The notes under the pieces are model-generated. The model saw only the letters and a program-made list of their open reading frames with translations, was not told where the DNA came from and made no database searches. Source: Limnothrix sp. BL-A-16 (GTDB lineage: Bacteria; Cyanobacteriota; Cyanobacteriia; CACIAM-69d). Taken from it: a DNA stretch of 64,000 nt. The translations under genes were made by a program, and so were the position numbers. The stretch covers positions 3,936,001-4,000,000 of the forward strand of contig CP166615.1 in assembly GCA_041937175.2 (NCBI GenBank), given 5' to 3'. Below, one piece after another: positions 2,829 through 63,340 of this stretch. The first letter of the stretch is position 1; each line of letters opens with the position of its first letter.

Positions 2829-2951
2829 GAGGATGTCTGAAAAGCCAAACTTGCTACTCGGTATGCCCCGATAATCGACGCAGACAAGGGGCTTAAGCCC
2901 CTTGCCCCCACGACACTGGCCCGTACTGAAAGACACTTCTCAGACATCCTC
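2829..2951 (+). mobile_element. MITE family A, copy 1 (123 bp)
   Basis: TIRs GAGGATGTCTGAAAAG / CTTCTCAGACATCCTC; TCA duplicated at 2826-2828 and 2952-2954; palindrome at 2885-2904. Confidence 0.9.
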
Positions 2952-3033
2952 TCAGGCAACTCTCCGATCAGATTTCAAGCCAGCAAACTTAAGCAAGTGT
3001 TTTCTCAGTCAGTCTCTACCCGGTGCTGCGACT

Positions 3034-3642
3034 ATGCTAGGCAAGTTTTTTCAAAAACCAGAACCCAATCAGGGCGATCGCGTGCCGCCGGGTCAATACT
3101 TAGCCACGGGGTTTCCGGTGCTGACCTATGGCGATACACCGGACATTCACCTAGAGGATTGGGAACTGGAGGTTTGGGGTTGTGCCCAGCCGGTCAAGCT
3201 TCGTTGGCATGACCTGATGGCCATGCCCCAGTCGGACTTCACGGCGGATTTTCACTGCGTTACCCGCTGGTCCAAGCTGGATGTGCAGTGGCGCGGGGTG
3301 AAGGTGACGGACTTTATGCGGGCGATCGATCTGGATCCGAAGGCAGTGCATGTGATGCAGCACTGCTATGGGGACTACACCACTAACTTGGCGATCGAGG
3401 ATTTCCTGCGCGAGGAAAACTTCTTTGCGCATACGTTGTTTGGCGAACCTTTGCCCCCGGATCATGGCGGGCCGCTGCGGTTGGTGGTTCCCCATTTATA
3501 TGCTTGGAAAAGCGGCAAGTGGCTGAAGGGCTTGGAATTTTTGGATCACGAAGCCCTGGGTTTTTGGGAACGCAATGGTTACCACAAGCGCGGTGAACCC
3601 TGGGCGGAGGAACGGTATGCCGGGCGTGGCTTGTTCCTTTAG
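3034..3642 (+). CDS. Sulfite-oxidase-like molybdopterin-dependent oxidoreductase
   Basis: RVPPGQ, DFHCVTRWS, HGGPLRLVVPHLYAWKSGKW, GFWERNGYH. Confidence 0.92.
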   Translation: MLGKFFQKPEPNQGDRVPPGQYLATGFPVLTYGDTPDIHLEDWELEVWGCAQPVKLRWHDLMAMPQSDFTADFHCVTRWSKLDVQWRGVKVTDFMRAIDLDPKAVHVMQHCYGDYTTNLAIEDFLREENFFAHTLFGEPLPPDHGGPLRLVVPHLYAWKSGKWLKGLEFLDHEALGFWERNGYHKRGEPWAEERYAGRGLFL

Positions 3643-3663
3643 CCTGAAATCCTGAATACGGAT

Positions 3664-4218
3664 ATGGGTGCAACTCCCGCAATTAATCCCGTCATGAATA
3701 CCGAAGATACCGGGCGAAAGCACGAGCAGGAACCAAAACCAGGGCTAGAGCCAAAACAACAACCTTTCACCACTGGCGATCGAACTGATCCATCACAGAA
3801 CCCTGACCAGGGGCCAAAAAACGTTTTGGGCGGGCCGCTGGCGCTCTGTGGCCAAAATCCGGTCACGGGGTTCTATCGCACGGGCTGTTGCGAAACGGGG
3901 CCGCTTGATCGGGGATCCCATACGGTTTGTGCCCAGGTGACGGCAGCATTTTTGGAATTCACCCGATCGCGCGGCAATGATCTGAGCACTCCGCTACCTT
4001 GGGCTGATTTTCCGGGGCTGAAACCGGGCGATCGGTGGTGTCTATGCGCCAGTCGGTGGCTAGAGGCCGTGGCGGCCGGGGCGGCTCCGCCTGTGGATTT
4101 GCAAGCAACCCATGAGGCTGCCCTGCGAATTGTGCCCCTAGAGGCCTTAAAGCGCCATGCCTTGTCCCGATCGCCCGAGGCCAGCTCAGATGGGACTCAG
4201 CCAAATCAGGCCAGTTAA
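3664..4218 (+). CDS. DUF2237-family protein
   Basis: NVLG...PVTGFYRTGCC...GLKPGDRWCLCASRW; start uncertain. Confidence 0.9.
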   Translation: MGATPAINPVMNTEDTGRKHEQEPKPGLEPKQQPFTTGDRTDPSQNPDQGPKNVLGGPLALCGQNPVTGFYRTGCCETGPLDRGSHTVCAQVTAAFLEFTRSRGNDLSTPLPWADFPGLKPGDRWCLCASRWLEAVAAGAAPPVDLQATHEAALRIVPLEALKRHALSRSPEASSDGTQPNQAS

Positions 4219-4302
4219 CCGAATCAGGCCAGTTAAATATAAACAAATCAGGCCAGTTAAATATAAATAACTTAGACAAATTGGGCAGATTAGACCAGTT
4301 AG
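4204..4302. repeat. Three exact copies of AATCAGGCCAGTTAA plus one degenerate copy
   Basis: Copies at 4204-4218, 4222-4236, 4246-4260; degenerate at ~4289-4302; the first copy contains the DUF2237 stop codon. Confidence 0.85.
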
Positions 4303-4491
4303 GTGTGATCCCCGTAATCTATAGCATTTCGGTTGATTGCGACTCATTGCAAAAGACCAAGGGTGAGTAATCACTCCCAAGGGCTGTAAGGCAAGGCTAG
4401 CCGTCGTTTTCAGGGCTGTGCAGTACGGTTTTCCCACAATTCTTCGCTAGATTGTCAGAGCAGGTCAGGGTACAGTAGAAGCAGGTCAGCA

Positions 4492-6579: not shown

Positions 6580-6721
6580 GTTGCACAGCAAGCGTATTTT
6601 GATAGGTCAAATCAAATGACGGTTACCGTTACCAGACCGTTAGGCAGCAAGGGGCTTAAGCCCCTTGTTACAACGGCTGGCTCCGCAACGTTGACCCAGC
6701 GAATTAGGGCAGCCGTGCCAT
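6580..6721 (+). mobile_element. MITE family C, copy 1 (~142 bp)
   Basis: Imperfect TIRs GTTGCACAGC / GCCGTGCCAT; body homologous to 46467-46627; palindrome at 6648-6667. Confidence 0.7.
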
Positions 6722-7806
6722 CACTGGGGCGATCGGGCCTGATTTTTGGGGCGATCGGGCTGGGGTTGGGCTTGGGGGCCCAGCCCTTGGCGGCGGCCCC
6801 CAGCAACCCGCTCACCCCCTTGCAACGGTTGCAAACCACCCGTGCCTGCGTTGAGTGTGACCTGTCTGGGGTTGATCTGAGCGGCTTGGACTTGCGGGGC
6901 GTTGACTTGCAGCGAGCCACACTGACGGCAGCGGTTTTGAACGGGGCGAACCTGCGCGGGGCCCGGCTCGATGGCATTGCCGGCCAGGAAGCCCAGTTTC
7001 GGGATGCGGATTTGAGCGGGGCCACCCTGACCGATGCGCGGATGCGTGGGGCCAAGTTCCAGCGGGCTAACCTCACGGAAGCGGTGTTGGATAAGGCTCG
7101 CCTGCGGGAAGCGAACTTTCGAGGCGCAACCCTGACCCGCGCCAGTTTGGTGCAGAGCCTGTTGGTGGCCAGTCGCCTCAAGGAAGCGAACTTGCAGGGG
7201 GCTGATCTGCGGTTTGCCCAGTTGGATGGGGCGGATTTGTCCGATGCTCAGTTGCGATCGAGCAAGTTGGTGCGATCGAGCCTGACGGGAGCTACCCTAC
7301 TGGGGGCAAACCTGGTGATGGCTAACTTTGAAGGGGCCAATCTCTCCCAAGCCAAGCTGGGCGGCGCGGACGGGTTTCAAGCCAACTTTGCCAATGCTCT
7401 GTTGTTGGGGGCGGGCCTGCGGCAAACCAACTTGGAAGAAGCCAACCTCAGCAGTGTGAAGGCGGTAGGGGCGCGGTTTTTGGAAACGAACCTCCGCAGC
7501 GCGATCGCCACGGGAGCCGACTTCACCCAAGCTGACTTCAGCAAGGCCAATCTCCAGCGGGCGGGTCTCAGCTTGGCGGTGTTTCGGCAAGCGCGCCTGA
7601 TTGGCACGAATCTGCAACAGGCCAAGATGGGAGGGGCCGTGATGCAAGGGGCTGTGCTCACCGATGCTCGGCTCGATCGCGCCTACCTGGCCCAGGCGGA
7701 CTTACGAAGCATCGTGACCCGCAACACCAATTTCACCGGAGCCACCTTAGACGGAGCCGTGACCCGTGGGGCTGACCTATCTGGGGCGATCGGCTGGGTG
7801 CAATAG
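6616..7806 (+). CDS. Secreted pentapeptide-repeat protein
   Basis: Hydrophobic signal-like segment, CVECDLSG, long A(D/N)LXX array; start (ATG 6616 or GTG 6715) lies inside MITE C1. Confidence 0.88.
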   Translation: MTVTVTRPLGSKGLKPLVTTAGSATLTQRIRAAVPSLGRSGLIFGAIGLGLGLGAQPLAAAPSNPLTPLQRLQTTRACVECDLSGVDLSGLDLRGVDLQRATLTAAVLNGANLRGARLDGIAGQEAQFRDADLSGATLTDARMRGAKFQRANLTEAVLDKARLREANFRGATLTRASLVQSLLVASRLKEANLQGADLRFAQLDGADLSDAQLRSSKLVRSSLTGATLLGANLVMANFEGANLSQAKLGGADGFQANFANALLLGAGLRQTNLEEANLSSVKAVGARFLETNLRSAIATGADFTQADFSKANLQRAGLSLAVFRQARLIGTNLQQAKMGGAVMQGAVLTDARLDRAYLAQADLRSIVTRNTNFTGATLDGAVTRGADLSGAIGWVQ

Positions 7807-10068: not shown

Positions 10069-10712
10069 TCCCAACTTCAGATTCGCAGCCCTCAGATTCC
10101 CAACTCTCCAACTCCCCAACGCCCCCATCCCCTGATTTAGCTCCTTGGCGATCGCCCCTGTCGCGGGCCTTGCACCGTAACCGATCGCTGATCTATGCCC
10201 GCTATTTGCAACTGGCCACGGTGCGCCCCGATGGCAGTCCTGCGAACCGAACGGTGGTCTTTCGGGGATTTCGCGATCGCACGGATTGGCTCACGGTGAT
10301 CACGGACAGCCGCAGCGAAAAGATGCCGCAACTAGCTGCAAATCCCCGCGCGGAAGCCTGTTGGTACTTTCCCAAAACGCGCGAACAATTTCGGATTGCC
10401 GGAACCTTGCGGGCGGTGCTGTCCACCACGCCCGACCCCACGGAGCAGGCCGAGCGATCGCACCTGTGGCAAAACCTCTCGGATGCGGCCCGGTTGCAGT
10501 TTGCCTGGCCCGAGCCTCGGGGCGATCGCACGGTTGATCCGGCCGCCTTTGCGCCGCCGCCGCCGGATTCGATCGCGCCGCTGGAGACCTTTGTGCTGTT
10601 GTGGCTCATCCCTGAGCGGGTGGATTGGCTGGAGCTAAAGGGGGAGCCGCAAAATCGCACCGGGTTCGATCGCACCCCCGACGGTTGGCAAACCCACGCC
10701 CTCAACCCTTAG
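10065..10712 (+). CDS. FMN-dependent pyridoxamine-5'-phosphate-oxidase-type flavoprotein (Npun_F5749-like)
   Basis: LAPWRSPL, YLQLATV..PANRTVVFRGF, CWYFPKTREQFRI. Confidence 0.88.
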   Translation: MIPTSDSQPSDSQLSNSPTPPSPDLAPWRSPLSRALHRNRSLIYARYLQLATVRPDGSPANRTVVFRGFRDRTDWLTVITDSRSEKMPQLAANPRAEACWYFPKTREQFRIAGTLRAVLSTTPDPTEQAERSHLWQNLSDAARLQFAWPEPRGDRTVDPAAFAPPPPDSIAPLETFVLLWLIPERVDWLELKGEPQNRTGFDRTPDGWQTHALNP

Positions 10713-10842
10713 AGGATGTCTGAAAAGCCAAAATTGCTACTCTGTACGCCCCAGGGATCGATGTAGACAAGGGGCTTAAGCCCCTTGCTCCCACGACAAT
10801 TAATGTTTAGCCCGTACTGAAAGATACTTCTCAGACATCCTC
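10712..10842 (+). mobile_element. MITE family A, copy 2 (131 bp)
   Basis: Same TIRs as A1; TTA duplicated at 10709-10711 and 10843-10845; palindrome at 10768-10787. Confidence 0.9.
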
Positions 10843-28768: not shown

Positions 28769-28910
28769 GGGCCTGTCGTCATTTAACCCGAAACCCTAGA
28801 TCTACCGTTAGCGGATCGTGAGGGACAAGGGGCTTGAGCATCTTGCTACGACGGTTAGGACACAGAAGATCAGCCGTTCTAGCATCACCTCGAAAAATGA
28901 CGACAAGCCC
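28769..28910 (+). mobile_element. MITE family B, copy 1 (142 bp)
   Basis: TIRs GGGCCTGTCGTCATTT / AAATGACGACAAGCCC flanked by TA; degenerate palindrome at 28826-28845. Confidence 0.88.
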
Positions 28911-28913
28911 TAA

Positions 28914-29044
28914 GAGGATGTCTGAAAAGTATCTTTTGGCCTGTGCCAAACACCAATAGTTGTGGGGGCAAGGGGCTTAAGCCCCTTGTCTCCGTCGATC
29001 CCTGGGGCGTACAGGGTAGCAATTTTGGCTTTTCAGACATCCTT
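28914..29044 (-). mobile_element. MITE family A, copy 3 (131 bp, inverted), abutting B1
   Basis: GAGGATGTCTGAAAAG ... CTTTTCAGACATCCTT; TAA duplicated at 28911-28913 and 29045-29047; palindrome at 28969-28988. Confidence 0.88.
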
Positions 29045-38757: not shown

Positions 38758-38907
38758 CAGGCGAGTCCAGTCCAAAAAACGGCCAAGGGGTGAGCGAAAT
38801 TAAAAATCGCAAGAAAGACGAGGATTAATCAGCAGTCGCTTGCACGGAAAGAGCAATGAGGCATAGCATAACAACTAGACAGCCTCGCGTTTGGCGCAAC
38901 TTGCTCG

Positions 38908-39309
38908 ATGAAAACGGTTTTGATCGTTGAAGACGACCCAATTAATGCACGCGTCTTCTCCAAAATTTTGACCAAGCGGGGCGGCCTGGCCGTGCAGCAC
39001 ACAGAAGATGTGGAAGAGGTCGTGAAGATTGCCCGGGCGGGCGAAGCGGACATCATCTTGATGGACGTTTCCTTGGCCCACAGCACCTATGAGGGCAAAT
39101 CGGTTGATGGCATTAAAATCACCCAAATGCTGAAGGGGGATCCGGCCACGGCCAAGCTGCCCATCATTTTGGTGACGGCCCACGCCATGGAAGGCGATCG
39201 GGAAAATTTCCTGTCCGAAAGTGGCGCGGATGACTACATTTCCAAGCCCGTGGTGGATCACCAGGCCTTTGTGGACAAAATCGTCAGCCTGCTGCCCACG
39301 GATGCTTAG
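38908..39309 (+). CDS. Single-domain response regulator (CheY/DivK-like)
   Basis: LIVEDD, LMDVSL, LVTAHAM, YISKP. Confidence 0.93.
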   Translation: MKTVLIVEDDPINARVFSKILTKRGGLAVQHTEDVEEVVKIARAGEADIILMDVSLAHSTYEGKSVDGIKITQMLKGDPATAKLPIILVTAHAMEGDRENFLSESGADDYISKPVVDHQAFVDKIVSLLPTDA

Positions 39310-39405
39310 GGCGGGCGATCGAGGGCTGGAGAGATAGTTCACGGGTCGCCAATTGCTGTTTGGGCCATCTTCCGTTGGGAGGGTGGCCCATTGCCCGATC
39401 GGCCC

Positions 39406-41649
39406 CTAGGCCTGATTGCCCGTGGCTTCCAGGGATTCGAGAATGTTCAAAATTTCCAGAGCGGCGGCGTAGGTATCGTTCAAAATCCGTTCGTCTTCTT
39501 CGGGATCATCGGTCAAGTCATCCAAAATGAGCCGCAGGGCCCCAATAATTTCGCTGAGGCGCGATCGCACCTGATAGGAAATTTGGGCGAAGGTTTCATA
39601 GCGATCCATGCCCCCACCTCCTGAGTCGCTGTAGAACGATCGCTGAACTTGCAGCGCGTCTTCAAACAACTCCATGGTGCTCAACATCCGAATGGCCGAT
39701 CGATAGGATTCGCGCAGGAGTTCTTGGCGTTCCTCGTTGCTGTCCACCAAGTCATCCACCAGCAATTGCAGGGAGCCGACGGTGATGTTGAGCCGGGTGC
39801 GAATTTCGTAGGAGGTGCGGTTGAAGGTTTCGCTGGCGGTGGCCATCGGTTGCTGCACCCGGGCATTGCCAAACTGCATGGTGTAGAGCTTGGCGTAGGC
39901 TCCGCCCTTGGCCAGCAGTTCCGCATGGTTGCCCACTTCCACCACGCGCCCCTTGTCCAGGACGGCGATTTGGTTGGCCCGCTGCACGGTTGAGAGGCGG
40001 TGGGCAATGGCGATCACGGTGCGATCGCGGCTGAGGGTTTCGATCGCCTCCTGCACCAACCGCTCGGACACCGTATCCAGGGCGCTGGTGGCCTCATCCA
40101 AAATCAGCACTGGGGGATTTTGCAGCAAGGCCCGGGCGATCGCCAGCCGCTGCCGTTGCCCCCCCGACAACATCACACCCCGATCGCCAATGGTGGTTTC
40201 CAGGCCGCGCGGCATTCGCTCAATAAATTCCATGGCGTTGGCTAATTTGGCGGCGGCAATCACCTCCTCATCGGTGGCCGTGGGCATCGGGTAGGCGATG
40301 TTGTTGCGGATGGTGTCGTTAAACAGAAAGGTTTCTTGGCTGACAATGCCCAGGGATCGCCGGAGCGATCGCACATCAAAGCTGCGTAAGTCTTGACCAT
40401 CAATGAGGATCCGCCCCGCCGTTGGGTCGGCAAACCGGGGCACTAACTCCACAAGGGTTGATTTCCCGGCTCCGGAGCTGCCCACCAGGGCCAAGGTTGT
40501 GCCCCGGGGCAAGGTGAGGGTGATGTCTTGGAGTGTCAGCTCGCTGCTGCCTTCGTAGGCAAAGCTGAGATTTTCAAACCGAATGTCCTGGTGCAGTCCC
40601 GTGAAGGGGGTGGAACCATTGGCCAAAAAGGTCTTGTTGCTCGATCGCAAAAAGTCTTCCACCACATCCACACTGGCGGCCGTGTTGGCCAACTGGCCCC
40701 GCAACCGGTTGAGCTGGGCCACCAGGGGCAACAGCCGAAACAGCAGTGTCAGATAGGTTAGCAGCACCGTGGACAGGGCACTGAGCTGATCCGCAAACAG
40801 CCAGCGACTGATGCCAACGATCGCCATCAACATCACCACGCTCACCACTTCCGTGACCGGGGCGATCGCGATCGAGTTGGCCTGGGATTTAAACTCCGCT
40901 GCCTCCCGGGCCTTGGTTAGCCGCAGCATTCGATCGAACTCCCGCGCCTCCATGGCAGCCGATCGCACCAACCGCATCCCGCCCAAAATCTCCAACAGGG
41001 CCACGGAATAGTCCTTGGAGGTTTGGGACACATCCTTCCCCAGTTGGCGGGATTGGTTGACATAGAGCTGATTAATCCACACCACCCCCGTAAACAACAC
41101 CGTGGCCACCACCGTCAGTTGCCAAGACAGCAGCAGCAACAGCCCCACCATCACCAGGATCGAAACCACCGTGGCCACCAATTGCAGCAAATTGGCCACC
41201 GTGGCCGAAACCCGCCCAATTTCATTCCCCAGGCGGTTGTTGATGTCGCCCACGCGGGTGCGAGCAAAGTAGCTGAGATTTACATCCAGCAGTAACTGAA
41301 TGGCGTTCATGCGCAGGTCAGCCGCCAGCGATCGCTGCAAAATTCCGACGGCCAAGGCGCTGAGATAGGTGGCCAGGTTTTTGAGGGCGATCGTGCCCAC
41401 CACCGCCACGGCCATGGCGATCGGTTGGTAGGCCACCGGCAGCCCCTCAAAGGGCGAAAAAAGTTTGCGCAAAATGGGCGGCCCGCCGGACAGCACCATT
41501 TCTTGGCCCAAAAAGCGCAGCACCACTGGCACAATCAGCGCCGTGCTCACCCCGTTGAACAGGGCCCCCGAGAAGCCCATGATCATGGTCCAAGCCGCTT
41601 GTCGGGGATAGCGCCGAATCAGTTGCCAAAGGAATTTGCGTCGGGCCAT
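39406..41649 (-). CDS. HepA/MsbA-like ABC exporter (TMD+NBD) with C-terminal tandem HisKA-like domains
   Basis: [26 protein letters not shown]; ~145 aa tail with two related helical-hairpin repeats. Confidence 0.92.
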   Translation of the reverse strand: MARRKFLWQLIRRYPRQAAWTMIMGFSGALFNGVSTALIVPVVLRFLGQEMVLSGGPPILRKLFSPFEGLPVAYQPIAMAVAVVGTIALKNLATYLSALAVGILQRSLAADLRMNAIQLLLDVNLSYFARTRVGDINNRLGNEIGRVSATVANLLQLVATVVSILVMVGLLLLLSWQLTVVATVLFTGVVWINQLYVNQSRQLGKDVSQTSKDYSVALLEILGGMRLVRSAAMEAREFDRMLRLTKAREAAEFKSQANSIAIAPVTEVVSVVMLMAIVGISRWLFADQLSALSTVLLTYLTLLFRLLPLVAQLNRLRGQLANTAASVDVVEDFLRSSNKTFLANGSTPFTGLHQDIRFENLSFAYEGSSELTLQDITLTLPRGTTLALVGSSGAGKSTLVELVPRFADPTAGRILIDGQDLRSFDVRSLRRSLGIVSQETFLFNDTIRNNIAYPMPTATDEEVIAAAKLANAMEFIERMPRGLETTIGDRGVMLSGGQRQRLAIARALLQNPPVLILDEATSALDTVSERLVQEAIETLSRDRTVIAIAHRLSTVQRANQIAVLDKGRVVEVGNHAELLAKGGAYAKLYTMQFGNARVQQPMATASETFNRTSYEIRTRLNITVGSLQLLVDDLVDSNEERQELLRESYRSAIRMLSTMELFEDALQVQRSFYSDSGGGGMDRYETFAQISYQVRSRLSEIIGALRLILDDLTDDPEEDERILNDTYAAALEILNILESLEATGNQA

Positions 41650-41874
41650 TGGATCACAAGGGAAAGGGAACGAGATCTACCCAAAATAGGCAGCGGTGGC
41701 CAAAAACCACACCAAGAACCCATCAGGCAGAACCTGATGCAACGTCCTGACGCGATCGCCCCGGGGATCTGGAGAAATGCGCATCTGAATTTTAGGCCGG
41801 GCATTGGCCCGATGGGGGGCGACCGCCACCGCTTCTTGGCCACCGACCCGCAGCAGCCCCACCCCGCCGCCCTA

Positions 41875-42016
41875 GGGCCTGTCGTCATTTCGCCCAAAAC
41901 CCTAAATCTGCCGTTAGCGGATCGTGGGGGACAAGGGGCTTGAGCATCTTGTTACGACGATTAGGGCGCGGAAGATCAACCGTTTCAGCATCACCTCGAA
42001 AAATGACGACACCCCC
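41875..42016 (+). mobile_element. MITE family B, copy 2 (142 bp)
   Basis: GGGCCTGTCGTCATTT / AAATGACGACACCCCC; TA duplication in a CTAG context; degenerate palindrome at 41932-41951. Confidence 0.9.
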
Positions 42017-43224
42017 TAGCACCGATCGAGAATTTGGTGCAGGCCCGTGGCCATCGCTTCCAGGCTGTAGTGCTCAATGCAGCGCTGCCGGGCCCGCCGC
42101 CCGATCGCCCCCGATTGTTCCGGATCATCCAACACCTGGCGAATGGCTTGGGCCAGTTGACTCGGCTGGCTGGGTTCCACCAACAGCCCCGTATCCCCCA
42201 GCAATTGCGGAATATCGCCCACGCGGGTGGCAATGACCGGCTTGCCCATGGCCATGCCGTCCGTCAGCTTCAGGGGAAATTGGGCGCGGGTTTCCGGGGT
42301 GTCCCGTTGGGGAACCACCACCGCGTGGGCCGCCGCCACCACCGCTGGCATCTCCGAGGCCGGTTGTTTGGGTAAATAGATCAGCCACCGGCCCCAGCGG
42401 GCCTGTAGTTGCTGGTCATAGTCATCGTAGGGACTGCCCCCCACGATCACCAGCCGAATTTGTGGATCGTTGAGCTGATCCAAAGCCACCAACAAGTCTT
42501 CAACGCCTTTGTAGGGGCGGGTGGCTCCTGGAAACATCAAAATTTTGTAGTCTTGCCAGCCTTGGTGCGATCGGGCGGCGACGGGATCGAATCGATCGGG
42601 ATCAAACAGGGCCGTATCCTTGCCGCTGGGAATCAAAACCCCACCGAACCGTTGCTGTAACGCTAAGGTATTGACGGTAATCGCTGTGGCATGGCTGGCC
42701 CAAGGCTCGATCGCCTGGAGATAGAGGGGATGATCGGGCCGGCGCAGTTCCCCATCTTTACCTAACAAGTCGCGCAGAAATTTGCGCGGCCGCAGCCGAT
42801 AGCGGTATTGATCGCCCCCGTGCCAGCTCAACTCCCAATCATCAATATCCACAATCACCGGCCGCCGATGGGCGATCGCCTTCAGCAGCCCCAAGCCGTA
42901 GCTGCTGGGCTTCAGCTTTTGGGCATAGATGATATCGCCGGTAATTTGGGGCCAAAGCCGGGCGATCGAGCGAAAGTAGCCAGGATAGGGGTAACCCGGT
43001 ACGGTCACCACCTGCCAGTGGGGCGGAGCGGGCAACGTTCCCAACTCCCCAAACACCGACCCCACGATCTGGATTCGATAACCCAGGCGATCGAGTGCTT
43101 GGGCCAACAAAAATGTGCGCACCGCACCGCCCCAACGGCCGACCCCCTTGGTGGACAGATCGCTCACCAGAATGGTGACTTGGCGCGGTTGGGCCGAGGG
43201 TTGAGACTTGGAGAAAACAGACAT
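42016..43224 (-). CDS. Glycosyltransferase family 4
   Basis: YKGVEDL, FPLKLTDGMAMGKPVIATRVGDI. Confidence 0.92.
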   Translation of the reverse strand: MSVFSKSQPSAQPRQVTILVSDLSTKGVGRWGGAVRTFLLAQALDRLGYRIQIVGSVFGELGTLPAPPHWQVVTVPGYPYPGYFRSIARLWPQITGDIIYAQKLKPSSYGLGLLKAIAHRRPVIVDIDDWELSWHGGDQYRYRLRPRKFLRDLLGKDGELRRPDHPLYLQAIEPWASHATAITVNTLALQQRFGGVLIPSGKDTALFDPDRFDPVAARSHQGWQDYKILMFPGATRPYKGVEDLLVALDQLNDPQIRLVIVGGSPYDDYDQQLQARWGRWLIYLPKQPASEMPAVVAAAHAVVVPQRDTPETRAQFPLKLTDGMAMGKPVIATRVGDIPQLLGDTGLLVEPSQPSQLAQAIRQVLDDPEQSGAIGRRARQRCIEHYSLEAMATGLHQILDRC

Positions 43225-43341
43225 CAGCGGCACAGCAGCAAGAGGGCGAGGAACCACCGCAGATCAGCCGATTCGCCAATCTGCTTCAGGGTTCTGACGG
43301 TTTAGATCGCTCGGCCAGGCCAAATCTATGGCCAGACCAGC

Positions 43342-43542
43342 CTATGGATGCACAATTCGCACCCGCCCCAACTTCACCAGGTCAAAAAGCCTGGACACTT
43401 GCCGCCGCTGCTCGTCAGTCATCTTAAAATCACTGAGAAGGCAGTTGGCCAGGCTCAGGTAATCTTGCCGGGGAATCGCTTCGACTCCATCTAAGCGATC
43501 GAGAATTGGCTGAAGGTCGAATTCTGTCGCTTTCGTCGCCAT
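43342..43542 (-). CDS. Small conserved cyanobacterial hypothetical protein
   Basis: 66 aa, ...LLSD...RRQVSRLFDLVKLGRVRIV; divergent from gloB. Confidence 0.6.
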   Translation of the reverse strand: MATKATEFDLQPILDRLDGVEAIPRQDYLSLANCLLSDFKMTDEQRRQVSRLFDLVKLGRVRIVHP

Positions 43543-43648
43543 TGACGCTGATGTCGAAGAGGTCGCAAGGCCGATCCGCCGCGATTTTCGCCGCTTGCGC
43601 GCTCTTCGCGCGGTGGGGGGTCTGTTGTTAATTCTATTTCGCACCCCA

Positions 43649-44431
43649 ATGTACGTCGAACGCATTCCGGCTCTGTTGGACAACTATATCTTTTTGTTAG
43701 TCGATCGCGCTCGTCAAGAGGCCGCCGTGGTCGATCCGGCGGAAGCCCAACCGGTGCTCGATCGGCTGGCAGCCCTCAACTGCCGCCTCACCACAATTTT
43801 TAACACCCATCACCACCGCGATCATGTGGGTGGCACACCGGCCCTGTTGCAGGCCTTTCCTGAACTGGTGGTCTATGGGGGCGCGCGCGATCGGGGGCGA
43901 ATTCCCGCGCAACAGGTGTTTTTGGAAGGGGGTGAAACAATTCTCTTTGCCGATCGCACCGCCCAAGTGTTCTTTGTGCCCGGCCACACCCGCGCCCATG
44001 TGGCCTATTACTTTGCCCCCGCCAACGGCCCCGACAGCGACGGTTGGGGCGATTTATTTTCCGGGGATGTGATTTTTGGGGCCGGTTGCGGTCGCCTCTT
44101 TGAGGGCACACCGGCCGAAATGCTCCAGTCGATCGACCAACTGCGCCAACTGCCAGACAGCACCCGGATTTGGTGTGCCCATGAATACACCCTGGGTAAC
44201 CTGGAATTTGCCCAAACCATCGAACCCCAAAACCTCGCGCTGCAACAACGCCTCCAGGAAACTCGCCTCGCGCGATCGCACCAGCAACCCACCGTCCCCC
44301 TCCGCTTGGGCCAAGAAAAACAAACCAATCCTTTTCTACGTTGGGATAGTCCTGCCGTCCAAGCCGCCATGGCCACCGATGATCCCGTGCGCACCTTTGC
44401 CCGTCTGAGGGGTAAAAAAGATCTTTGGTAG
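43649..44431 (+). CDS. gloB: Hydroxyacylglutathione hydrolase (glyoxalase II)
   Basis: DNYIF, THHHRDHVGG, PGHT, GCGRLFEG, CAHEYT, TNPFLR. Confidence 0.95.
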   Translation: MYVERIPALLDNYIFLLVDRARQEAAVVDPAEAQPVLDRLAALNCRLTTIFNTHHHRDHVGGTPALLQAFPELVVYGGARDRGRIPAQQVFLEGGETILFADRTAQVFFVPGHTRAHVAYYFAPANGPDSDGWGDLFSGDVIFGAGCGRLFEGTPAEMLQSIDQLRQLPDSTRIWCAHEYTLGNLEFAQTIEPQNLALQQRLQETRLARSHQQPTVPLRLGQEKQTNPFLRWDSPAVQAAMATDDPVRTFARLRGKKDLW

Positions 44432-44698
44432 CGATATCAAGATGCCGTCAAGATGTCGCCTCTCCCCATCGAAAATCCAGGTTGCTCCTTTGATCCTCCA
44501 AGGGGCATGAAAATTGGTAACCCTTGAATCAATTTGACCCCGGCATCAACCAAGATGACCATTGCTATCAATTGCTATCAATGGTGCAAGTGGTTTTGAG
44601 ATGGGCAATTGAGCCACTATTTCGATCACTAAGAGGGATGATCGATTCTCTAACAACGCTCCTGGAAAAGGCGAATTAGCGATGAAGTTTAAATCTGC

Positions 44699-44740
44699 GT
44701 AGTTTCGGCTACAAATAGTCCAAAAAATCCTTGCTAGGCT
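44699..44740 (+). promoter_or_regulatory. Canonical NtcA-activated promoter of nrrA
   Basis: GTA-gtttcggc-TAC (44699-44712), exactly 22 nt, then TAGGCT (TAN3T, 44735-44740). Confidence 0.88.
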
Positions 44741-44797
44741 ACGGGGTAATTCTCGAATCTGCTGCCGCATTGGGCAACAACGAGTTGAATCAAGCCT

Positions 44798-45601
44798 GTG
44801 GCTCCTATTAGCATTCAGATTATTGAGACGAATCCACACCTACGCTCGTTGTTGGGGTGGCACTTACAACAACTGGGCTACGTGGTTTGTCCGTCAGCAA
44901 CGCTTCAGCAAGCACGGGACGTGGCCCAGGCCCAACGGCCAATGTTGGTTGTGCTGGATCCCGATTTGCCCGATGGGGATGGTTTGGAATTCTGTGCCTG
45001 GTTGCAACGGGTTCAGCAGCCGATGGTGCTGATGATTTCGGCGCGATCGGGCGAGGCGGATGCGGTGGCGGCCCTGCGGGCGGGAGCAGATGACTATCTG
45101 CGTAAGCCTTTTGGGATGCAGGAATTTTTGGCGCGGGTGCAGGCGTTGGTGCGTCGGGGCCGATCGCGATCGGCTCCGGCCCTGCTGGACTGCGGGGTGT
45201 TGCGGATTGATCTGATTCAGCGGCGGGTGTGGCTGTTTGAGCGGTCGATCGAGCTGACCCCCCAGGAATTTAGCCTGCTCTATGCCCTGGCCCAGGCGGG
45301 CGGTGTGCCCCTCAGTCGGGCGGAAATTTTGCAGCGGGCTTGGCCCGAGTCGATCGACAATCCGCGCACGGTGGATACCCACGTGTTGTCCCTGCGCAAA
45401 AAGCTGGAGGCCGATCCCCGCCAACCCAGCACCATCCAAACCGTCCGCAATGTGGGCTATCGCCTGAATCTGGAGCGCTTGGAACTGCATCGGGAACCCA
45501 CCAATGGCCATGGCCCGCCGCCAAATCCGGTGGGGGGTGGCCCCGCTGGTTCGGGCGGGGGAGCCTTGTCCCGATCGATGTTGTCCGTGTCCTCGGGCTA
45601 G
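44798..45601 (+). CDS. nrrA: OmpR-family nitrogen-regulated response regulator NrrA
   Basis: NPHLRSLLGWHLQQ N-terminus, KPFGMQEFLAR, RTVDTHVLSLRKK; upstream NtcA promoter. Confidence 0.85.
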   Translation: MAPISIQIIETNPHLRSLLGWHLQQLGYVVCPSATLQQARDVAQAQRPMLVVLDPDLPDGDGLEFCAWLQRVQQPMVLMISARSGEADAVAALRAGADDYLRKPFGMQEFLARVQALVRRGRSRSAPALLDCGVLRIDLIQRRVWLFERSIELTPQEFSLLYALAQAGGVPLSRAEILQRAWPESIDNPRTVDTHVLSLRKKLEADPRQPSTIQTVRNVGYRLNLERLELHREPTNGHGPPPNPVGGGPAGSGGGALSRSMLSVSSG

Positions 45602-45660
45602 GGGCGATCGCGCTAGGATCCTGACAAATCAATTGGATCGAGCTAGCCCGATCATCGCGC

Positions 45661-46368
45661 ATGTTTCCCATTGGCGACGACAATCCCACCCGCCGCACAG
45701 CCTATGTGACCTATGGGTTAATTGGGGTTAATTTGCTCGTATTTTTATACGAAATTAGCCTCAACCCCTTGCAATTACGGGCGTTGTTCGAGGTATGGGC
45801 CGTTGTGCCCTTAGAGCTGACCGCACAGTTCAACGGCTATCCGGTCACCATTCCCGGAACCAACCTACCCGAAGCAATCACCCTGCTCACCTCCCAGTTT
45901 TTGCATGGGGGCTGGGCCCACTTGGGCGGAAACATGCTGTTCCTGTGGATCTTTGGCAACAATGTTGAAGATCGATTGGGATCCATGAAATACCTCCTGT
46001 TTTACCTGGCTTCGGGAGCCATTGCAGGGCTTTGCCAGTGGTTCTTCGCGCCGCTATCTTCCGTCCCTTCATTAGGCGCGAGTGGTGCGATCGCGGGGGT
46101 GATGGGAGCCTATATCTTGCGCTATCCCCGAGCGAGCGTTTTAACCCTCGTGCCCCTAGGATTCGTGCTCATCCCCTTGCGAATTGCGGCTTTTTGGTAT
46201 TTGGGTATTTGGTTTTTGCAACAGGCGCTTTATGGGCTGGGATCGCTCCAACAGCCCATGAATATCGGCTTGAGTGAGGGTGGAATTGCCTATTGGGCCC
46301 ATGCGGGCGGTTTCGTGGCCGGGGCCTTGCTGGGGCCATTGTTGGGGCTATTCAAGAAAGACGATTAA
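45661..46368 (+). CDS. Rhomboid intramembrane serine protease
   Basis: FLHGGWAHLGGNM, GASG, WAHAGGF. Confidence 0.95.
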   Translation: MFPIGDDNPTRRTAYVTYGLIGVNLLVFLYEISLNPLQLRALFEVWAVVPLELTAQFNGYPVTIPGTNLPEAITLLTSQFLHGGWAHLGGNMLFLWIFGNNVEDRLGSMKYLLFYLASGAIAGLCQWFFAPLSSVPSLGASGAIAGVMGAYILRYPRASVLTLVPLGFVLIPLRIAAFWYLGIWFLQQALYGLGSLQQPMNIGLSEGGIAYWAHAGGFVAGALLGPLLGLFKKDD

Positions 46369-46466
46369 GCAAAAACTCCAGACCGGGAATGCTCACTGAT
46401 CGGTTTGAAAGGCATCCCGATCGCCCGTCCGAGCTGAACTTTGAGCCAGGTGTTTAGTCAAGCCTA

Positions 46467-46627
46467 CGAGCACGGACAGTTTATTTTCATCGGTCAAGTC
46501 AAACCCTATTGGTCAACTCAAGCGACTGCCACCGTTACCCGATCGTTAGGCAGCAAGGGGCTTAAGCCCCTTGTCATGGTGACTGGTTCCGCAACGTTGA
46601 CCCAACGAATTAAGCCTGTTGTGCCAC
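46467..46627 (+). mobile_element. MITE family C, copy 2 (~161 bp)
   Basis: Homologous to 6580-6721 with a short internal duplication; flanked by TA; palindrome at 46554-46573. Confidence 0.7.
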
Positions 46628-49434
46628 TACAGATTCAGCACGGCCAAGGTGATATCGGCGGCCCGTTGGATTTGGAAACCCAGTTTTTCGCACAGATGGC
46701 GCATGGGGGCGTTGTTGGGCAAAATTTCGCCCCGCAGTCGATCGATCTTTTCGTCGCGGGCAATGGCAACCAACCGCTGCAAAAGTTCCGTGCCTAGCCC
46801 CTGATTTTGATAGCGATCGCGAATCAGCATCGCAAACTCCGCTTCATTGGAGCCGTGCAGCTTGCTAATGCGGCTGACTCCCAAAATTTCCCGCTCTTCG
46901 CTGGGATCGCGTCCCTCCGCCACCAGTGCCATTTCCCGATCGTAGTCAATGAAGCAAATCCGCGATAGGCGCTCGTGGCTAATGCGCTGGCTCAGTTTCA
47001 GGGCGTGGAAATAGCGTAGATAAACCGTTTGTTCCGACAAGCTCTCGTGGAAACGCACCAAAGGCGGTTCATCCTCCGGGCGAATGGGGCGGATGTTGAC
47101 CGCTGTGCCATCGCGCAGAGTCCAGGGAGCTGCGTATTGAATGGGATAAGGGCGGATGGCCGGCCGGGGCAACGTTGCCGGATCCATGGGCGGGTGCAAC
47201 ACCACCCGCGCATCCAGGGCAATCAGCGAACTGGTGGTTCCGGTGGCCACGGCCTGGCCAGCCTCGCGGGCGAGGAGGGGGTTGATGTCAATTTCCTTAA
47301 TCCAGGGCTGTTCCACCACCAGTTGGCTGAAGCGCACCAGGAGTTGCTCCAGGGCGGCCAAGTCCACGGGGGCCCGGCCGCGTACCCCTTGCAGGGCTTT
47401 ATAAATGCGGGTTTGTTCCATCATCCGCCGGGCCAGGGTGGTGTTGAGCGGGGGCAGGCCCAAGGCCCGATCGCGGAACACCTCCACCAACTGACCGCCC
47501 AACCCAAACAGCAACACGGGGCCAAATTGTGGATCCACACTACTGCCCAGGATCAGCTCATAGCCATCCAACTTGAGCATGGGTTGCACGGTTACCCCCA
47601 AAAAGTCCGCCGTCAGGACGCGCCGTTGGGGATCGGTATCCCCTTCTTCGGCGTTGCTGCTGGTTGGTTGGGGTTTGTGGCGGTTGGCGATCGCCACGCC
47701 GGCCACGATCGCCAGGTAAGCCCAGCGCACCTCATTGGCATTTTGCAAATTCAGCCGCACACCGCCCACATCGCTTTTGTGGGTGATGGTTTCGGAATAG
47801 AGCTTCAGGGCCACGGGATAGCCAATGTCGTTGGCAATTTCCACGGCCTCTTCGAGCTTGGTGGCGATGCGGGTTTCCACCACGGGAATTCCATAGGCGG
47901 CCAGGATTTGCTTAGCTTCAAATTCCGTGAGTAGATTGCGGCCCACCGCCTGGGCTTGCTGAATAATCCGAGTGACGGCGGCCCGATCGGGTTCGGCGGC
48001 AAAGCTGCCCGCCACTGCGTTGGGGGTTTCATACAGTCCCCGCAGGTTGTAGCTGTAGCGCCACATGTAGTTGAACACCCGGGTGGCCGCGTCGGGGTAG
48101 GGGAGGGTGAAGATGCCCGCTTGGTTCAAAATTGCCTCGCCAGCGGCCACGGCTGAACCGCCCATCCAACTGGCCAAAATGGGCTTCCCGCAATGGGCAT
48201 AGGGCCGCAGCCGTTCGGCAATTTGGGTGGGATCGGTCATGGCCTGGGGGGTGAGGATGGTCAGCAGCCCGTCTCCGTTGGGATCGGCGGCGGCAATTTC
48301 CAAGGCCTGGGAATAGCGATCGGGGTCGGCATCTCCCAAAATGTCGATCGGGTTGCGGCGGCTCCAACTGGGCGGCAACACCTGATCTAACCGCTCGATC
48401 GTCTCCGGCGACAGCTCGGCCAAATCGCCCCCACCGGACACCACCTCATCGGCCGCCAACACTCCGGGGCCGCCCGCATTGGTCAACACAATCAACTTGC
48501 GCCCCCGGGGGCGGGGTTGCTTGGCCAACACTTCGGTCATGTCGAACAGGTCTTCGATCGTCTCGACGCGCAACACCCCCGATCGCCGAAAGGCCGCATC
48601 CAACACCGCGTCACTACCCGACAGCGATCCCGTGTGGGAGGCGGCCGCCTGGGCCGCCGCTTCCGTGCGCCCCACCTTGATCACCATGATCGGTTTTTGC
48701 AACGCCACTTCTCGCGCCGCCGACAGGAAGGCCCGCGCATCCCCCACCGATTCCATATAAATGGCGATCGTGTGGGTGCGGGGATCATCGCCCAGGTATT
48801 CAATCAGGTCGCCCCAGCCCACATCCAGCATTGACCCGATCGACACAAAGGAACTGAAGCCCACCTGTTCCCGGAAGCTCCAATCCAAAATCGCCGTACA
48901 CATGGCCCCGCTTTGGCTCAGGAATGCCACATTTCCCGGCCGAGCCATGGCGCTGGCAAAGGTGGCGTTCAAACCGGAAATCGGATTCATCACCCCCAAG
49001 CAGTTGGGGCCCACCACCCGCATGTTGTAGCGACGGGCTTCGGTCAGGAGTCGTTTTTCTAGCTCAATGCCAGCGGGGCCAATTTCCTTGAAGCCCGCAG
49101 ACAGAACGATCGCCCCGCGTACCCCTGCCTGGCCACAATCGCGAATCAAGTCGGGAACGGTGGCGGCCGGGGTGGCAATCACCGCCAAATCCACGGTTTC
49201 GGGCACGTCTGCGATCGAGGGATAAGCTCGCACCCCCAACACGTTCGATCGCTTGGGATTAATCGGAAACACCGTGCCCCCAAAGGGGTTTTGCAACAAA
49301 TTGGTCAAGAGCGTGCGCCCCACACTCCCTTCCCGATCGGTTGCGCCAATCAGCGCCACACTCCGAGGCACAAAAATTGCATCCAAAGGATGGCGATCGG
49401 GAGAGACTTCAAGGGCGATGGAAGCAACTGTCAT
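46627..49434 (-). CDS. Bifunctional ADP-forming acyl-CoA synthetase-like / GNAT acetyltransferase (Pat type)
   Basis: [35 protein letters not shown]-terminal GNAT (QNQGLG). Confidence 0.92.
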
Positions 49435-60741: not shown

Positions 60742-60829
60742 TCTTTGACCACCCCGTACGAGTCTTTGACCACCCCGTACGAGATCCCGGGAGGGCAGTC
60801 CCAGGGGACAAGGGGCTTAGGCCCCTTGT
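60742..60829. repeat. 21-bp tandem duplication plus a near-perfect copy of the CAAGGGGCTTAAGCCCCTTG palindrome
   Basis: tctttgaccaccccgtacgag x2 (60742-60783); acaaggggcttaggccccttgt at 60808-60829. Confidence 0.8.
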
Positions 60830-60856
60830 TTACGGTGATCTTGATGCAGTTGCGTC

Positions 60857-61933
60857 TTAGTTTTGCTCGAAGGGCAGGCCAAAGACCGAGCAGAATGTTT
60901 TCTCAACCTTATAGCCCGAGTCGATCGTCTCTAGCGGGTCTTTCCGGAGCCGGTGACGCAAACAGAGCACAATCACCCGGCGGATGTCATCGACGGTCAC
61001 TTGGGTGCGACCTTCGAGGGCGGCGATCGCCTTGGCGGCCCGGTTGGTCACAATGTCGCCCCGCAACCCGTCCACGTCCAGCTCAGAACAAACCTGGGAA
61101 ATTTGCACCCGCAAATCGTAGTCCAGCTCCACCGAGGGCAATAGGTTCCGAGCGTTTACCAGTTTGGCTTGCAGGGCTTGCTGCTCCGTTTGGCAACGAT
61201 CGAGGTAGCTTTGGGGGCTGCTGTCAAAGGCCGATCGCTCTTCCACGATTTGCACCCGCAGGTTCGGCTCCTTCACGGTGCGAATTTCCGCGTGCATCCC
61301 GAAGCGATCGAGCAGTTGGGGCCGCAGCTCCCCTTCTTCCGGGTTGCCGGAACCCACCAACACAAACCGCGCTGGGTGGCGAATCGAAATCCCTTCCCGT
61401 TCCACCGTGTTCCAGCCCGAGGCCGCCGAATCCAGCAGCACATCCACCAAGTGGTCATCGAGCAGGTTCACTTCATCCACATAAAGGATGCCGCGATTGG
61501 CCTTGGCCAACAGGCCCGGTTCAAAGGCTTTCACCCCTTCGGCCAGGGCTTTTTCAATGTCGATCGTGCCGCAAACGCGGTCTTCGGTGGCTCCCAAGGG
61601 CAGGTCAACCATTTGTACCTTGCGCTGCACCACGGGCAAGGACTGACCCGCCAACGCCCGATCGCGCACCTCGTCGCTCATCAATTCCGGGTCGCGGGGG
61701 TCGCTGTTGAAGGGGTCGCCGTCCACCACATCGATTTCCGGGAGCAAGTCGGCCAGGGCGCGAATCGTGGTGGATTTGCCCGTGCCCCGATCGCCAACGA
61801 TCAACACACCCCCAATCTTGGGGTCAATGACGTTGAGCATCAACGCCAACTTCATTTCTTCTTGACCGACGATCGCCGTGAAGGGAAACACGGGCCGACG
61901 GCGGGTTTCGGAACTGACAACGGTTGCGGTCAC
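60857..61933 (-). CDS. chlI: Magnesium chelatase subunit I
   Basis: [40 protein letters not shown]. Confidence 0.97.
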
Positions 61934-62158
61934 GGGCGTTTCAGGTAAGGTCGATTTTGAAGGGTTGGATCTTATTGGGATCGAAATTGGGCGGGCCCTT
62001 GCGGCCGGCCGTCTTTCATTTTGCCATAGGGGTTGCGCTCCCAACGGGCGATCGGCTCGTTGGGGGAGGCTGATACCATGGACTGGTAACTTTTCAAAAA
62101 TTTCGGCAAGGGCTGGGCTGTGGCTGCAACTTCATCTCCTTGGGTCTCGGTGGCACGC

Positions 62159-63172
62159 ATGGTGGAAGAGCTGCTCTACTCAACTCGCCATCGGGCCAGC
62201 CTGGGCCCGACGGCGCGGGGCCCGGCGGCCCGGCGGGGGCGCTCATCGCGTCCGGTCGGCCCAATGGCGAATTCCCAACCTAGTCGCCCCCAGCCAACTC
62301 GGCGTGATTCGCTGGATGATCCTTGGGCCGATGACCCCGATCGCTACGTGGATGAATATGCGAACCAAGATGCCGACCAATATGTCGATCGCCCCGTAGA
62401 CCGGCTCGGCGATCGATCCCTCAATCGCCGGCCACGCCCCAGCCACCATCCGCGTAAAACACGCCTCCGCTCTCGCTACGCGGCCCGATCGATCATCACC
62501 CGGCGTTGGTTGCCTTGGGTTGCCGGTGGCAGCCTGCTCTTGCTGTCGGATTGGCAGCTAGGATCCGCCGCTGCGGCCGGTGGAGCCGTGGTTTGGCTGG
62601 TCTACCGCACCGAGCCGCGCCATTGGCAATCCCTCGATCGACAAATTCAAGGTTGGTTGCGAGAACTGAACCGGGGCGAAAACGGCAAGCTGACCCTGGC
62701 CCTGGTGGGTGGTGGTGCAGCCATGCTGAGCACCTACGTGGCCGCGGCCGTGTTGGGAGAATCGACCGGCTGGCTGGGGGCGGCCACGGTGCTTCAGGGA
62801 TTTGGAACCCTGGGCGCATTGGCCCTGCTGGTGCGCCACTGGCTCGGCCAACCCACGATCGAGCACGATCGCCTCTTCCATCGGGCGATCGAGCGATTGA
62901 GCGATCGCGATCCCCTTTCCCAACTGGCCGCCGCCCGCCAACTGGGCCACCTGGCCGATCGGGGGCACTTGGATGCCACCCAAACACGCACCGCCGCCGA
63001 CTGTGTACGGTTGCTGTTGCAACAGGGGTGCGATCGCCCCGTCCATGAAGCCGCTTGGGATACCTTGGCCGTGCTGGAACCGGTGGGCGCAGAACCCGGA
63101 GCCGCCCGATCGGGACGATCGCCCCAGCCCGTTTTGGTGCGTTTGCCTCGGGTCACGGTTCGATCGCGCTAA
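62159..63172 (+). CDS. Hypothetical membrane protein with C-terminal ARM/HEAT-like helices
   Basis: Disordered N-terminus, ~4 TM segments, LSDRDPLSQLAAARQL; start uncertain. Confidence 0.65.
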   Translation: MVEELLYSTRHRASLGPTARGPAARRGRSSRPVGPMANSQPSRPQPTRRDSLDDPWADDPDRYVDEYANQDADQYVDRPVDRLGDRSLNRRPRPSHHPRKTRLRSRYAARSIITRRWLPWVAGGSLLLLSDWQLGSAAAAGGAVVWLVYRTEPRHWQSLDRQIQGWLRELNRGENGKLTLALVGGGAAMLSTYVAAAVLGESTGWLGAATVLQGFGTLGALALLVRHWLGQPTIEHDRLFHRAIERLSDRDPLSQLAAARQLGHLADRGHLDATQTRTAADCVRLLLQQGCDRPVHEAAWDTLAVLEPVGAEPGAARSGRSPQPVLVRLPRVTVRSR

Positions 63173-63177
63173 CCCTA

Positions 63178-63340
63178 GGAGTGTTGTCATTTCGCCCAAA
63201 ACCCTGATTCCACCGTGACAAAATCGCGAGGGGCAAGGGGCTTACTCGTGAGGGGCAAGGGGCTTAAGCCCCTTGTTACGACGATTTGGCAACGGAAAAT
63301 CTAGGGTTTCAGCCTTACATCGAGAAATGAGGACAGGGCC
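63178..63340 (+). mobile_element. MITE family B, copy 3 (163 bp, with ~22-bp internal duplication)
   Basis: GGAGTGTTGTCATTT / AAATGAGGACAGGGCC flanked by TA; perfect palindrome at 63256-63275 and half copy at 63234-63244. Confidence 0.8.

Follow-up and report, generated by a model that had tools for sequence, protein, structure and literature searches.

As far as the accessible portions of four reports go (PMC6006769, PMC5581495, PMC8266576, PMC3733652), REP/REPIN systems with RAYT genes (REPtrons) comprise a short, abundant extragenic palindrome, several copies of which flank an HUH-Y1 gene. The 20-bp palindromic core that recurs in the window (the whole stretch of 64,000 nucleotides analysed here) behaves in the same way, and as in REPtrons, in-frame copies within genes occur (8). 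Unlike REP/RAYT loci, the enzyme loci associated with this core lack the GTAG/GTGG foot canonical for REPs (the tetranucleotide just before the core is in most cases CAGG, GAGG, CAGA or GGAA, 43 copies); the enzyme lies mostly in-frame within restriction-modification (RM) enzymes, carries the motifs DHVH/WA/YVxNNH and scores below both NCBIfam cut-offs (RAYT, 60.7 of 80; IS200, 42.6 of 55). Unlike REPIN doublets, about half of the copies are single hairpins inside shells bounded by terminal inverted repeats (TIRs). TIRtrons and REP-fused TIRs, in the accessible sections of PMC3733652, also join REP units to unrelated inverted repeats in hundreds of copies, but they flank tyrosine transposase genes, whereas the outer repeats here are DDE-type IS ends with target duplications.

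The cyanobacterial MITEs Nezha, MaeMITE and Muzha, as presented in the available parts of PMC3184786 and PMC10969869, resemble the shells described below in length (130–170 bp), in sharing TIRs with IS elements, in target duplications, in empty sites in relatives and in having a partner IS in another species. They differ in that the interior here is an exchangeable REP cargo common to unrelated shells, and in that one family here carries a near-optimal target for its own transposase. Insertion into or beside a palindromic repeat, or into the TIR of another element, is likewise described in the excerpts available: IS621, IS1594 and IS1397 (PMC3184786), and also ISPpu9, target REPs, IS4321/IS5075 target TIRs, and IS110 elements have a CT core with guides of 9 nt (left) and 4 nt (right) (PMC11208160). 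Here, in contrast to the REP-targeting IS, the element entering the REP is an IS5-family MITE with ordinary sequence bias, and an IS110 targets the TIR of that MITE. The core motif was found in no paper searched, as far as the accessible text extends, and the supplements of PMC3733652 and PMC6006769 held no core match; within the part of the literature covered, no account was found of IS5 MITE shells that carry REP cargo, or of the Y1 clade, which is apparently undescribed.

Our main reading, to which we give a probability of roughly 0.7, is that the core is the REP hairpin of an HUH-Y1 clade that was enclosed by IS ends and is now moved as cargo in three MITE families, A, B and C. The genome contains 326 exact copies of the 20-mer and 512 with up to 3 mismatches, of which ~250 lie inside A, B or C and 503 lie outside genes predicted with a simple gene caller made for this analysis; the palindrome is short, high-copy and extragenic, as REPs are. 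Most copies are single hairpins and not inverted REP doublets, and the few inverted pairs are located at enzyme loci. A compensatory variant is present in 10 copies genome-wide. GTRG occurs within 9 nt of the core in 68/97 A, 91/125 B, 0/27 C and 22/100 free copies. The core is thus REP-like yet outside the canonical GTAG-family REPs. All nine core positions given for the window by the sequence-only reading are correct (six exact and three variants, where 100 shuffles lead one to expect 0). The asymmetric core of ~40 bp that it described holds for A and B; as a general core it does not, since all copies share only GGGGR-20mer-TY. Contigs from four environmental DNA runs over window positions 27800–47500 reach the elements at high depth and break inside the repeats, and plasmid searches gave only short or unannotated matches.

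The earlier suggestion that the core is REP-like gains from the existence of a cognate HUH-Y1 clade and from the mutually unrelated shells that carry it. Cores lie near all 13 Y1 loci that reach ≥50% identity, the query itself included, every one of them from another genome or a metagenome, as against 0 of 50 distant Y1 loci. The only four cores of one genome (G081) flank a PF01797 domain that forms part of a type ISP RM gene, and one free-standing Y1 copy has a compensatory variant. Peptides encoded by the core lie within 90 aa of the domain in 54 of 68 long homologues (136 matches), compared with 12 matches in 43,269 aa elsewhere. The H-x-H and Y residues are invariant across 28 aligned homologues, and the closest fold match is E. 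coli TnpA-REP (4ER8). TnpA-Y1 class 3 of Quentin 2018 has NHVH, W[TA] and YV[VI]xEQ motifs and a CnGA foot; here WA matches, DHVH and YxxNNH differ, and CAGA precedes 4 of 43 core copies. In a quick tree the cyanobacterial REPtron copies, which lie in type ISP genes, group as a single clade, so the 13 loci should not be considered 13 independent events. The association argues that the core is the REP-like hairpin of a distinct, TnpA-REP-like HUH-Y1 clade, which would presumably cleave it, and pairs that clade with a defined candidate substrate.

A Y1 gene flanked by the core was sought in this genome as well. The cognate Y1 was not found in G000–G003 with the query used, nor in 83 of 89 core-positive genomes, and enzyme-driven seeding is therefore not demonstrated here; no Y1 gene lay within 1.2–1.5 kb of the core at 131 sampled core loci. 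Other candidate drivers were rejected: neither of the two resident Y1 genes (C1:1721528 and C1:4319872) has the core beside it, five Y1 matches in G001 and G002 lack a core-like hairpin and mostly have GTAG-type hairpins, and C1:4285376, considered as a relic of the cognate gene, is an A element with an internal duplication.

In the window, eight of the nine cores lie within TIR-bounded elements of 123–163 bp, as first described, and the ninth (60809..60828, unstranded, 1 mismatch; no orthologue of the site was recovered) is free of any shell. Family A is represented by a 123-bp element with a TCA duplication (2829..2951, minus strand, core 2885–2904; missing from the corresponding, locally poorly aligned site of G002), a 131-bp element with TTA (10712..10842, minus strand, core 10768–10787; G002 site empty and 133 bp shorter) and a 131-bp element with TAA (28914..29044, plus strand, core 28969–28988; absent in G002). 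The last adjoins a 142-bp family B element (28769..28910) with the three-substitution core allele at 28826–28845, where G002 has a different B copy in opposite orientation. Two further B elements are found at 41875..42016 (142 bp, the same allele at 41932–41951; G002 site empty and 144 bp shorter) and at 63178..63340 (163 bp, half-core duplicated, core 63256–63275; G002 site empty and 165 bp shorter); all three are on the plus strand with TA duplications. Family C, also on the plus strand, comprises an element of ~145 bp with degenerate TIRs (6580..6724, core 6648–6667; G002 site empty and 147 bp shorter) and a degenerate one of ~161 bp with approximate ends, read from the sequence (46467..46627, core 46554–46573; no orthologue of this site was recovered either).

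Shells were counted genome-wide as TIR pairs ≤260 bp apart, and the core is held by 107/110 A, 110/120 B and 29/32 C pairs. With TIRs, target duplications and no coding capacity, all three are MITEs. The duplications claimed for A (TNA) and B (TA) were confirmed, as was TA for C; the TIR proposed for C was not, the consensus being rather GTAGCGYGRCWRGC... with target CTAG. The shells had been called unrelated, which is true of the TIRs and outer arms of A compared with B and C (z ≤2.2). The 30 nt beside the core show a weak relationship (B vs C, z 2.3–3.4; A vs B, z 2.3–3.1 in 3 of 4 tests; A vs C not significant). A, B and C are not a single diverged family, the core is not the interior of any single IS, and the proposed two-tier system holds. 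Birth of the MITEs by fold-back of a single IS end was rejected, as B carries both left-type and right-type TIRs, and so was a selected rod-like structure, the inner arms pairing no better than shuffles (p 0.12–0.69).

Empty sites of all three families were found in a sister species. Differences in length between filled sites and their G002 counterparts cluster at element plus duplication (A, 132–135 in 8/19; B, 143–144 in 5/15; C, 144–147 in 4/9), the remaining sites being shared, replaced or rearranged. A sister species of 93% identity shares 31 of 41 orthologous sites of free cores, compared with 11/30 for A, 9/36 for B and 4/13 for C; the 10 unshared "free" cores are decayed shells, tandem duplications or unalignable. 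The shells move, and free cores are mostly old. In the main reading, an ancestor of the lineage would have received free core copies, probably while the cognate enzyme was present, and pairs of IS ends would then have come to enclose the hairpin with some flanking DNA. The resulting shells now carry the hairpin as cargo by ordinary DDE transposition, as the empty sites and duplications show. The capture step was unobserved, since the genome-wide TIR-pair search turned up no A or C element that has intact arms and lacks the core, as an ancestor would.

The search for IS5-type partners with matching TIRs succeeded for B and A, whose ends are of the IS5 family and whose partners we take to belong to the groups IS427 and IS1031. 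L282, an IS5 by its NF033580 score (above cut-off), has B TIRs and sits at the TA of the core inside a B MITE, and a decayed IS copy with B TIRs is at C1:1150888. L466, 913 bp long, is a transposase element bounded by A TIRs and IS5-like by eye. No partner was found for C, whose TIR pattern turned up in only the three same-genus genomes among 151: IS630-type loci gave no convincing match to its TIRs, and an ISAzo13 search gave no signal, even in its controls. In other genomes a TIR pair surrounds the core at 24 of 128 core loci (controls, 4%), with at least 10 TIR types distinguished by eye. MITE-sized A-type shells in other genera all lack the core (16/16), and 10 hold other hairpin pairs by eye; in this genome B and D shells also enclose hairpin pairs, of GTAG type or of other kinds. 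Shell and cargo are combinatorial.

Family B, which has IS5 ends, enters the core at its central TA. Of the 76 B insertions whose TA duplications are clean, 18 (24%) lie in cores, compared with 1% of intergenic TA sites, because the B transposase prefers the palindrome RSCY-TA-RGSY and the centre of the hairpin is a near-optimal match. Insertions occur in free cores and in the cores of A, B and C, which gives nested and tandem arrays; the same core is occupied by different B elements in two species, and in G001 the core that a B-in-B nest occupies is still empty. A special affinity of B for the core was rejected: a matrix trained on 41 sites distant from it puts the expected share of core hits at 6% (6-mer), 35% (10-mer) or 60% (20-mer), a range that spans the observed 24%, and ordinary target bias therefore suffices. 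Among 30 related IS5 loci, L306 alone sits in a core.

The three-substitution allele occurs in 68 copies with only 4 intermediates, in both orientations (A, 20; B, 33; C, 12; free cores, 3). It is not an assembly artefact, being present also in G001 (3 in 0.77 Mb) and G002 (4 in 1.2 Mb), in one case at an orthologous position. The sequence directly beside it is family-specific, and arms that are nearly identical occur with different alleles. As the allele is common to A, B and C, cores have been exchanged between families, over tracts of ~20–25 bp. It breaks the stem and loses the central TA, and no B junction was seen in it; it may, as a weak suggestion, spread because it is immune to B insertion. 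The exchange may proceed by nesting and slippage deletion, short gene conversion or HUH strand transfer. This distribution also counts in favour of a core that is still independently mobile: either the cognate HUH enzyme, passing through on mobile RM genes, or a Y1 enzyme resident here would cut and paste or swap the hairpin and so colonise and homogenise the MITEs; TnpA-REP cleaves and recombines single-stranded REPs in vitro, according to the accessible portion of PMC8266576. We consider such mobility unlikely. The earlier proposal of a mobile bare core found no support here, since no clean core-only insertion was present among the 41 orthologous free-core sites; the genome yielded no cognate Y1 and its two resident genes lack flanking cores, B nesting with slippage offers an enzyme-free route, and A/B and B/C chimeras of left and right arms exist.

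Those chimeras, together with the weak homology of the inner flanks for B–C and A–B, could instead reflect a single capture by one ancestral MITE, with A, B and C arising by outer-end swaps through recombination at a passive hairpin. As a full account this is improbable, since it leaves unexplained why at least 10 further shell types in other genera have unrelated flanks and why the same shells also hold other hairpins. One capture with later end-swapping accounts for the inner-flank similarity no less well than three captures do, and a single capture can hold locally as part of the main reading. Retention of the hairpin because it serves as a site for a host protein, terminates or stabilises RNA 3′ ends or enhances transposition is very improbable: it would fit the core's presence in nearly all A, B and C copies, the compensatory variant and the convergent bias of core-bearing intergenic regions (130 convergent vs 49 divergent; background 616 vs 615), but a stem-breaking allele has spread, the inner arms pair like shuffles, strand bias relative to upstream genes is not clear for A, C and free cores (B, 45:28), and selection against promoter insertions would by itself produce a 3′ bias.

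Dissemination of REPs is described as poorly understood in the available part of PMC8266576. The main reading suggests a RAYT-free route, carriage by DDE-mobilised MITEs, that can be tested, since the shells and partner transposases are named, empty sites are available and one allele serves as a marker, and it suggests where MITE interiors originate. We would tentatively go further and regard many cyanobacterial MITEs as general REP shuttles, in which IS ends repeatedly capture hairpins of HUH and other nucleases, shell and cargo mix across genera, and core-level exchange moves alleles between unrelated shells. If so, REP families could spread and persist after enzyme loss, and the system would be nested in four tiers: the REP, the MITE shells, an IS5 MITE that targets itself, and a bridge-RNA IS110 adapted to that MITE.

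That further tier would be added by an IS110 of which four identical copies sit on the B TIR (4/4 insertions). Its protein (NF033542, 244 bits, cut-off 140; IS621, E 6.5e-68), CT core and putative guides matching the target place it with the IS621-group bridge recombinases. The left non-coding end contains a 9-nt match to the left target and the complement of the right target; the single-sequence fold of the putative bridge RNA was not significant (z −0.99). The element appears to be an IS621-like IS110 with putative bridge-RNA guides for the end of the B TIR and, given the presumed pairing, supplies a natural retargeting event from REPs to a MITE end. Neither this targeting nor the insertion of B into the core was part of the sequence-only reading. 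In the relative L342, the putative guide and the target change together.

The 20-bp palindromic core, a REP-like hairpin, belongs to a genuine system of several tiers, assembled from known parts. REPs, RAYTs, MITEs and insertion sequences (ISs) targeting REPs or TIRs have been described (in passages of PMC3184786, PMC3733652, PMC6006769, PMC8266576 and PMC11208160). The arrangement was not found in the literature searched, which lies outside the key cyanobacterial repeat papers; this applies to the core motif, its cognate Y1 clade and REP cargo in interchangeable IS5 shells.

All nine core matches reported in the window were recovered as described, with 0 expected by chance. The 4.54-Mb chromosome of G000, the Limnothrix genome studied (GC 55%, rich in the HIP1 octamer, which marks it as cyanobacterial), carries 326 exact copies and 512 at ≤3 mismatches, making the core its most abundant 16-mer family. 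The ~40-bp shared core of the sequence-only reading shrank to GGGGR-20mer-TY, the only part common to all copies. Flank clustering of all 512 assigned 97 to MITE family, or shell, A (both arms), 78 to B1, 47 to B2 and 27 to C; 100 were unclustered, and the others were partial, tandem or chimeric. Nearly every TIR pair in G000 encloses a core (A, 107/110; B, 110/120; C, 29/32). The shells had been called unrelated, which holds for the A TIRs and outer arms against B and C; the 30 core-adjacent nucleotides are weakly related between B and C and between A and B. Cores also lie in-frame within predicted genes at C1:349074, 1305066, 1429062, 1437967, 1817937, 1818018, 3573190 and 4087301; one of these genes encodes an 1158-aa protein, presumably an MmeI-type RM enzyme. 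Other abundant repeat families, e.g. near C1:624967 and C1:3261997, resemble CRISPR repeats.

Core sites were compared with 1.2 Mb of G002, which is ∼93% identical, and with 0.77 Mb of the more distant G001 (∼83%). By this orthologous-site comparison, shells A, B and C are mobile MITEs, and no recent precise insertion of a bare core was found in the sample (41 orthologous free-core sites in G002). The proposed two-tier idea holds, with mobility seen for the shells and not, in this sample, for the bare core. Empty sites were present in the sister species, the clean ones being shorter by the length of the element and its duplication (A, 134 bp; B and C, 144 bp). At 120 orthologous sites, G002 has a core or half-core at 11/30 for A, 9/36 for B, 4/13 for C and 31/41 for free cores. 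Orthologous intervals were recovered for seven of the nine window cores, the element being absent from G002 at six; at window position 28769, G002 carries a different B in opposite orientation. Ten free cores absent from G002 were rejected as core-only gains, being decayed shells, tandem duplications or unalignable.

The core is also a target of B. About 96 half-core/B-TIR junctions occur in G000, some derived from 68-bp tandem amplification, and B insertions were found in free cores as well as in those carried by A, B and C. G001 has an empty core at the site of a B-in-B nest, the B element differs between the two species at two sites, and a full-length B-TIR IS of genome G003 is itself inserted in a core. 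Among B insertions with a clean TA duplication, 18/76 lie in cores, versus 1% of TA sites in intergenic DNA. Matrices built from insertions outside cores predict 6–35% core insertions (6- and 10-mer), so the usual target preference, applied to an optimal site that is abundant, accounts for this. IS5 relatives elsewhere insert at generic YTAR sites. Tandem arrays of the 68-bp unit (B TIR, left arm, half-core) at C1:68895, 327313, 2460854, 3246365 and 3569018 are as expected of slippage between outer half-core and inner core.

Partner elements with matching TIRs were found for the B ends (IS5 family) and the A ends (IS5-like by eye); a partner IS for C was looked for and not found. G003 contains a two-ORF IS5 element (NF033580) bearing B TIRs, a decayed relative of which comes after a B TIR at C1:1150888 in G000, and A TIRs bound a 913-bp element (L466) enclosing a 264-aa transposase-like ORF. 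We take the partner elements to belong to the IS427 and IS1031 groups.

The B TIR is in turn occupied by four identical IS621-like IS110 copies (L275–L278; C1:438684, 2154196, 3000077 and 3394391), all at the TIR end with a CT core and identical proteins close to IS621. Their left non-coding end matches both target halves (putative guides). The 11-base target has 80 copies in the genome, of which a scripted rule classes 69 as B-type TIR ends. Ends could be parsed at 8/30 related IS110 loci; one has an IS5 TIR target with a matching guide, and inspection by eye suggests REP targets for four.

Shell and cargo occur in many combinations, and the cargo is modular. In other genomes, an automatic score that 4% of control positions reach gives a TIR pair at 24/128 core loci, with ≥10 TIR types by eye. 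Among 30 loci examined, the core was absent from 16 MITE-sized A-type shells of other genera, 10 of which, by eye, hold other hairpin pairs. Some G000 B shells enclose GTAG-type pairs. Family D, a 173-bp MITE at C1:1153103 and 13 other sites whose ends are those of an IS5-like element resident in nine copies, holds hairpin pairs different from the core; its copy at 2403840 has a GTAG-type pair similar to the pairs next to the Y1 gene of locus L135. Shells A, B and C probably arose when pairs of IS ends captured a hairpin between them. 

Core alleles are shared among the families. A three-substitution allele has 68 copies, with just 4 intermediates, and is found in all three families and in either orientation, where the abutting bases are family-specific; near-identical arms carry different alleles. 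Independent mutation as the source of these copies is implausible. Transfer between families would require nesting combined with deletion, a short conversion, or strand transfer by an HUH enzyme. Inversion is possible via template switching in a quasi-palindrome.

The core is present, patchily, in 89/401 genomes of the class (41/169 genera) and, among the matches listed, in some Chloroflexota and other phyla. Y1 (HUH; TnpA-REP/RAYT/IS200-like) genes flanked by the hairpin exist in other genomes: cores lie beside 13/13 loci at ≥50% identity, a count that includes the query and overstates independence because the cyanobacterial copies form one clade in a quick tree. Distant Y1 loci have no core nearby (0/50). 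Cognate Y1 occurs in 6/401 genomes, every one core-positive, and was not found in G000–G003 nor in 83/89 core-positive genomes; how many cores a genome carries is thus mostly independent of the enzyme. In 28 aligned homologues the H-x-H and Y of the active site do not vary, and the predicted model (pLDDT 85) matches TnpA-REP and IS200 transposases structurally. The clade scores under both NCBIfam cut-offs, that for RAYT and that for IS200. The GTAG foot is absent at this clade's core copies. This Y1 may act on the hairpin, which may also have a function.

In genome G081, all four cores form two pairs flanking a PF01797 domain of 158 aa that is read in-frame within a type ISP RM gene. One core-flanked Y1 locus lies within a different, IIG-like RM gene; another stands alone, is interrupted by an internal stop and has a compensatory variant of the hairpin. 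Of the 68 longer Y1 homologues, 67 carry RM Pfams and 54 have core-encoded peptides adjoining the Y1 domain. Anaerolineae and WOR-3 are among both the homologue taxa and the core-bearing records. Y1 domain and hairpins are in-frame in type ISP and Eco57I-like IIG RM enzymes at two host positions (L368 in G081:C218; L388–L400; P0055–P0122). The only two cores of genome G014 (L369, C1:2030200–2030260) are in-frame in a DUF7149/DUF7814 protein, with no Y1 domain in the part of the locus examined. One Y1 homologue (P0118) is fused to a PriA-like helicase. At L001 (G000:C1:1720028–1723369), a Y1 gene adjoins a subtilisin-like protease, a prenyltransferase-like ORF and ∼500-bp tandem repeats, and the locus resembles a cyanobactin cluster.
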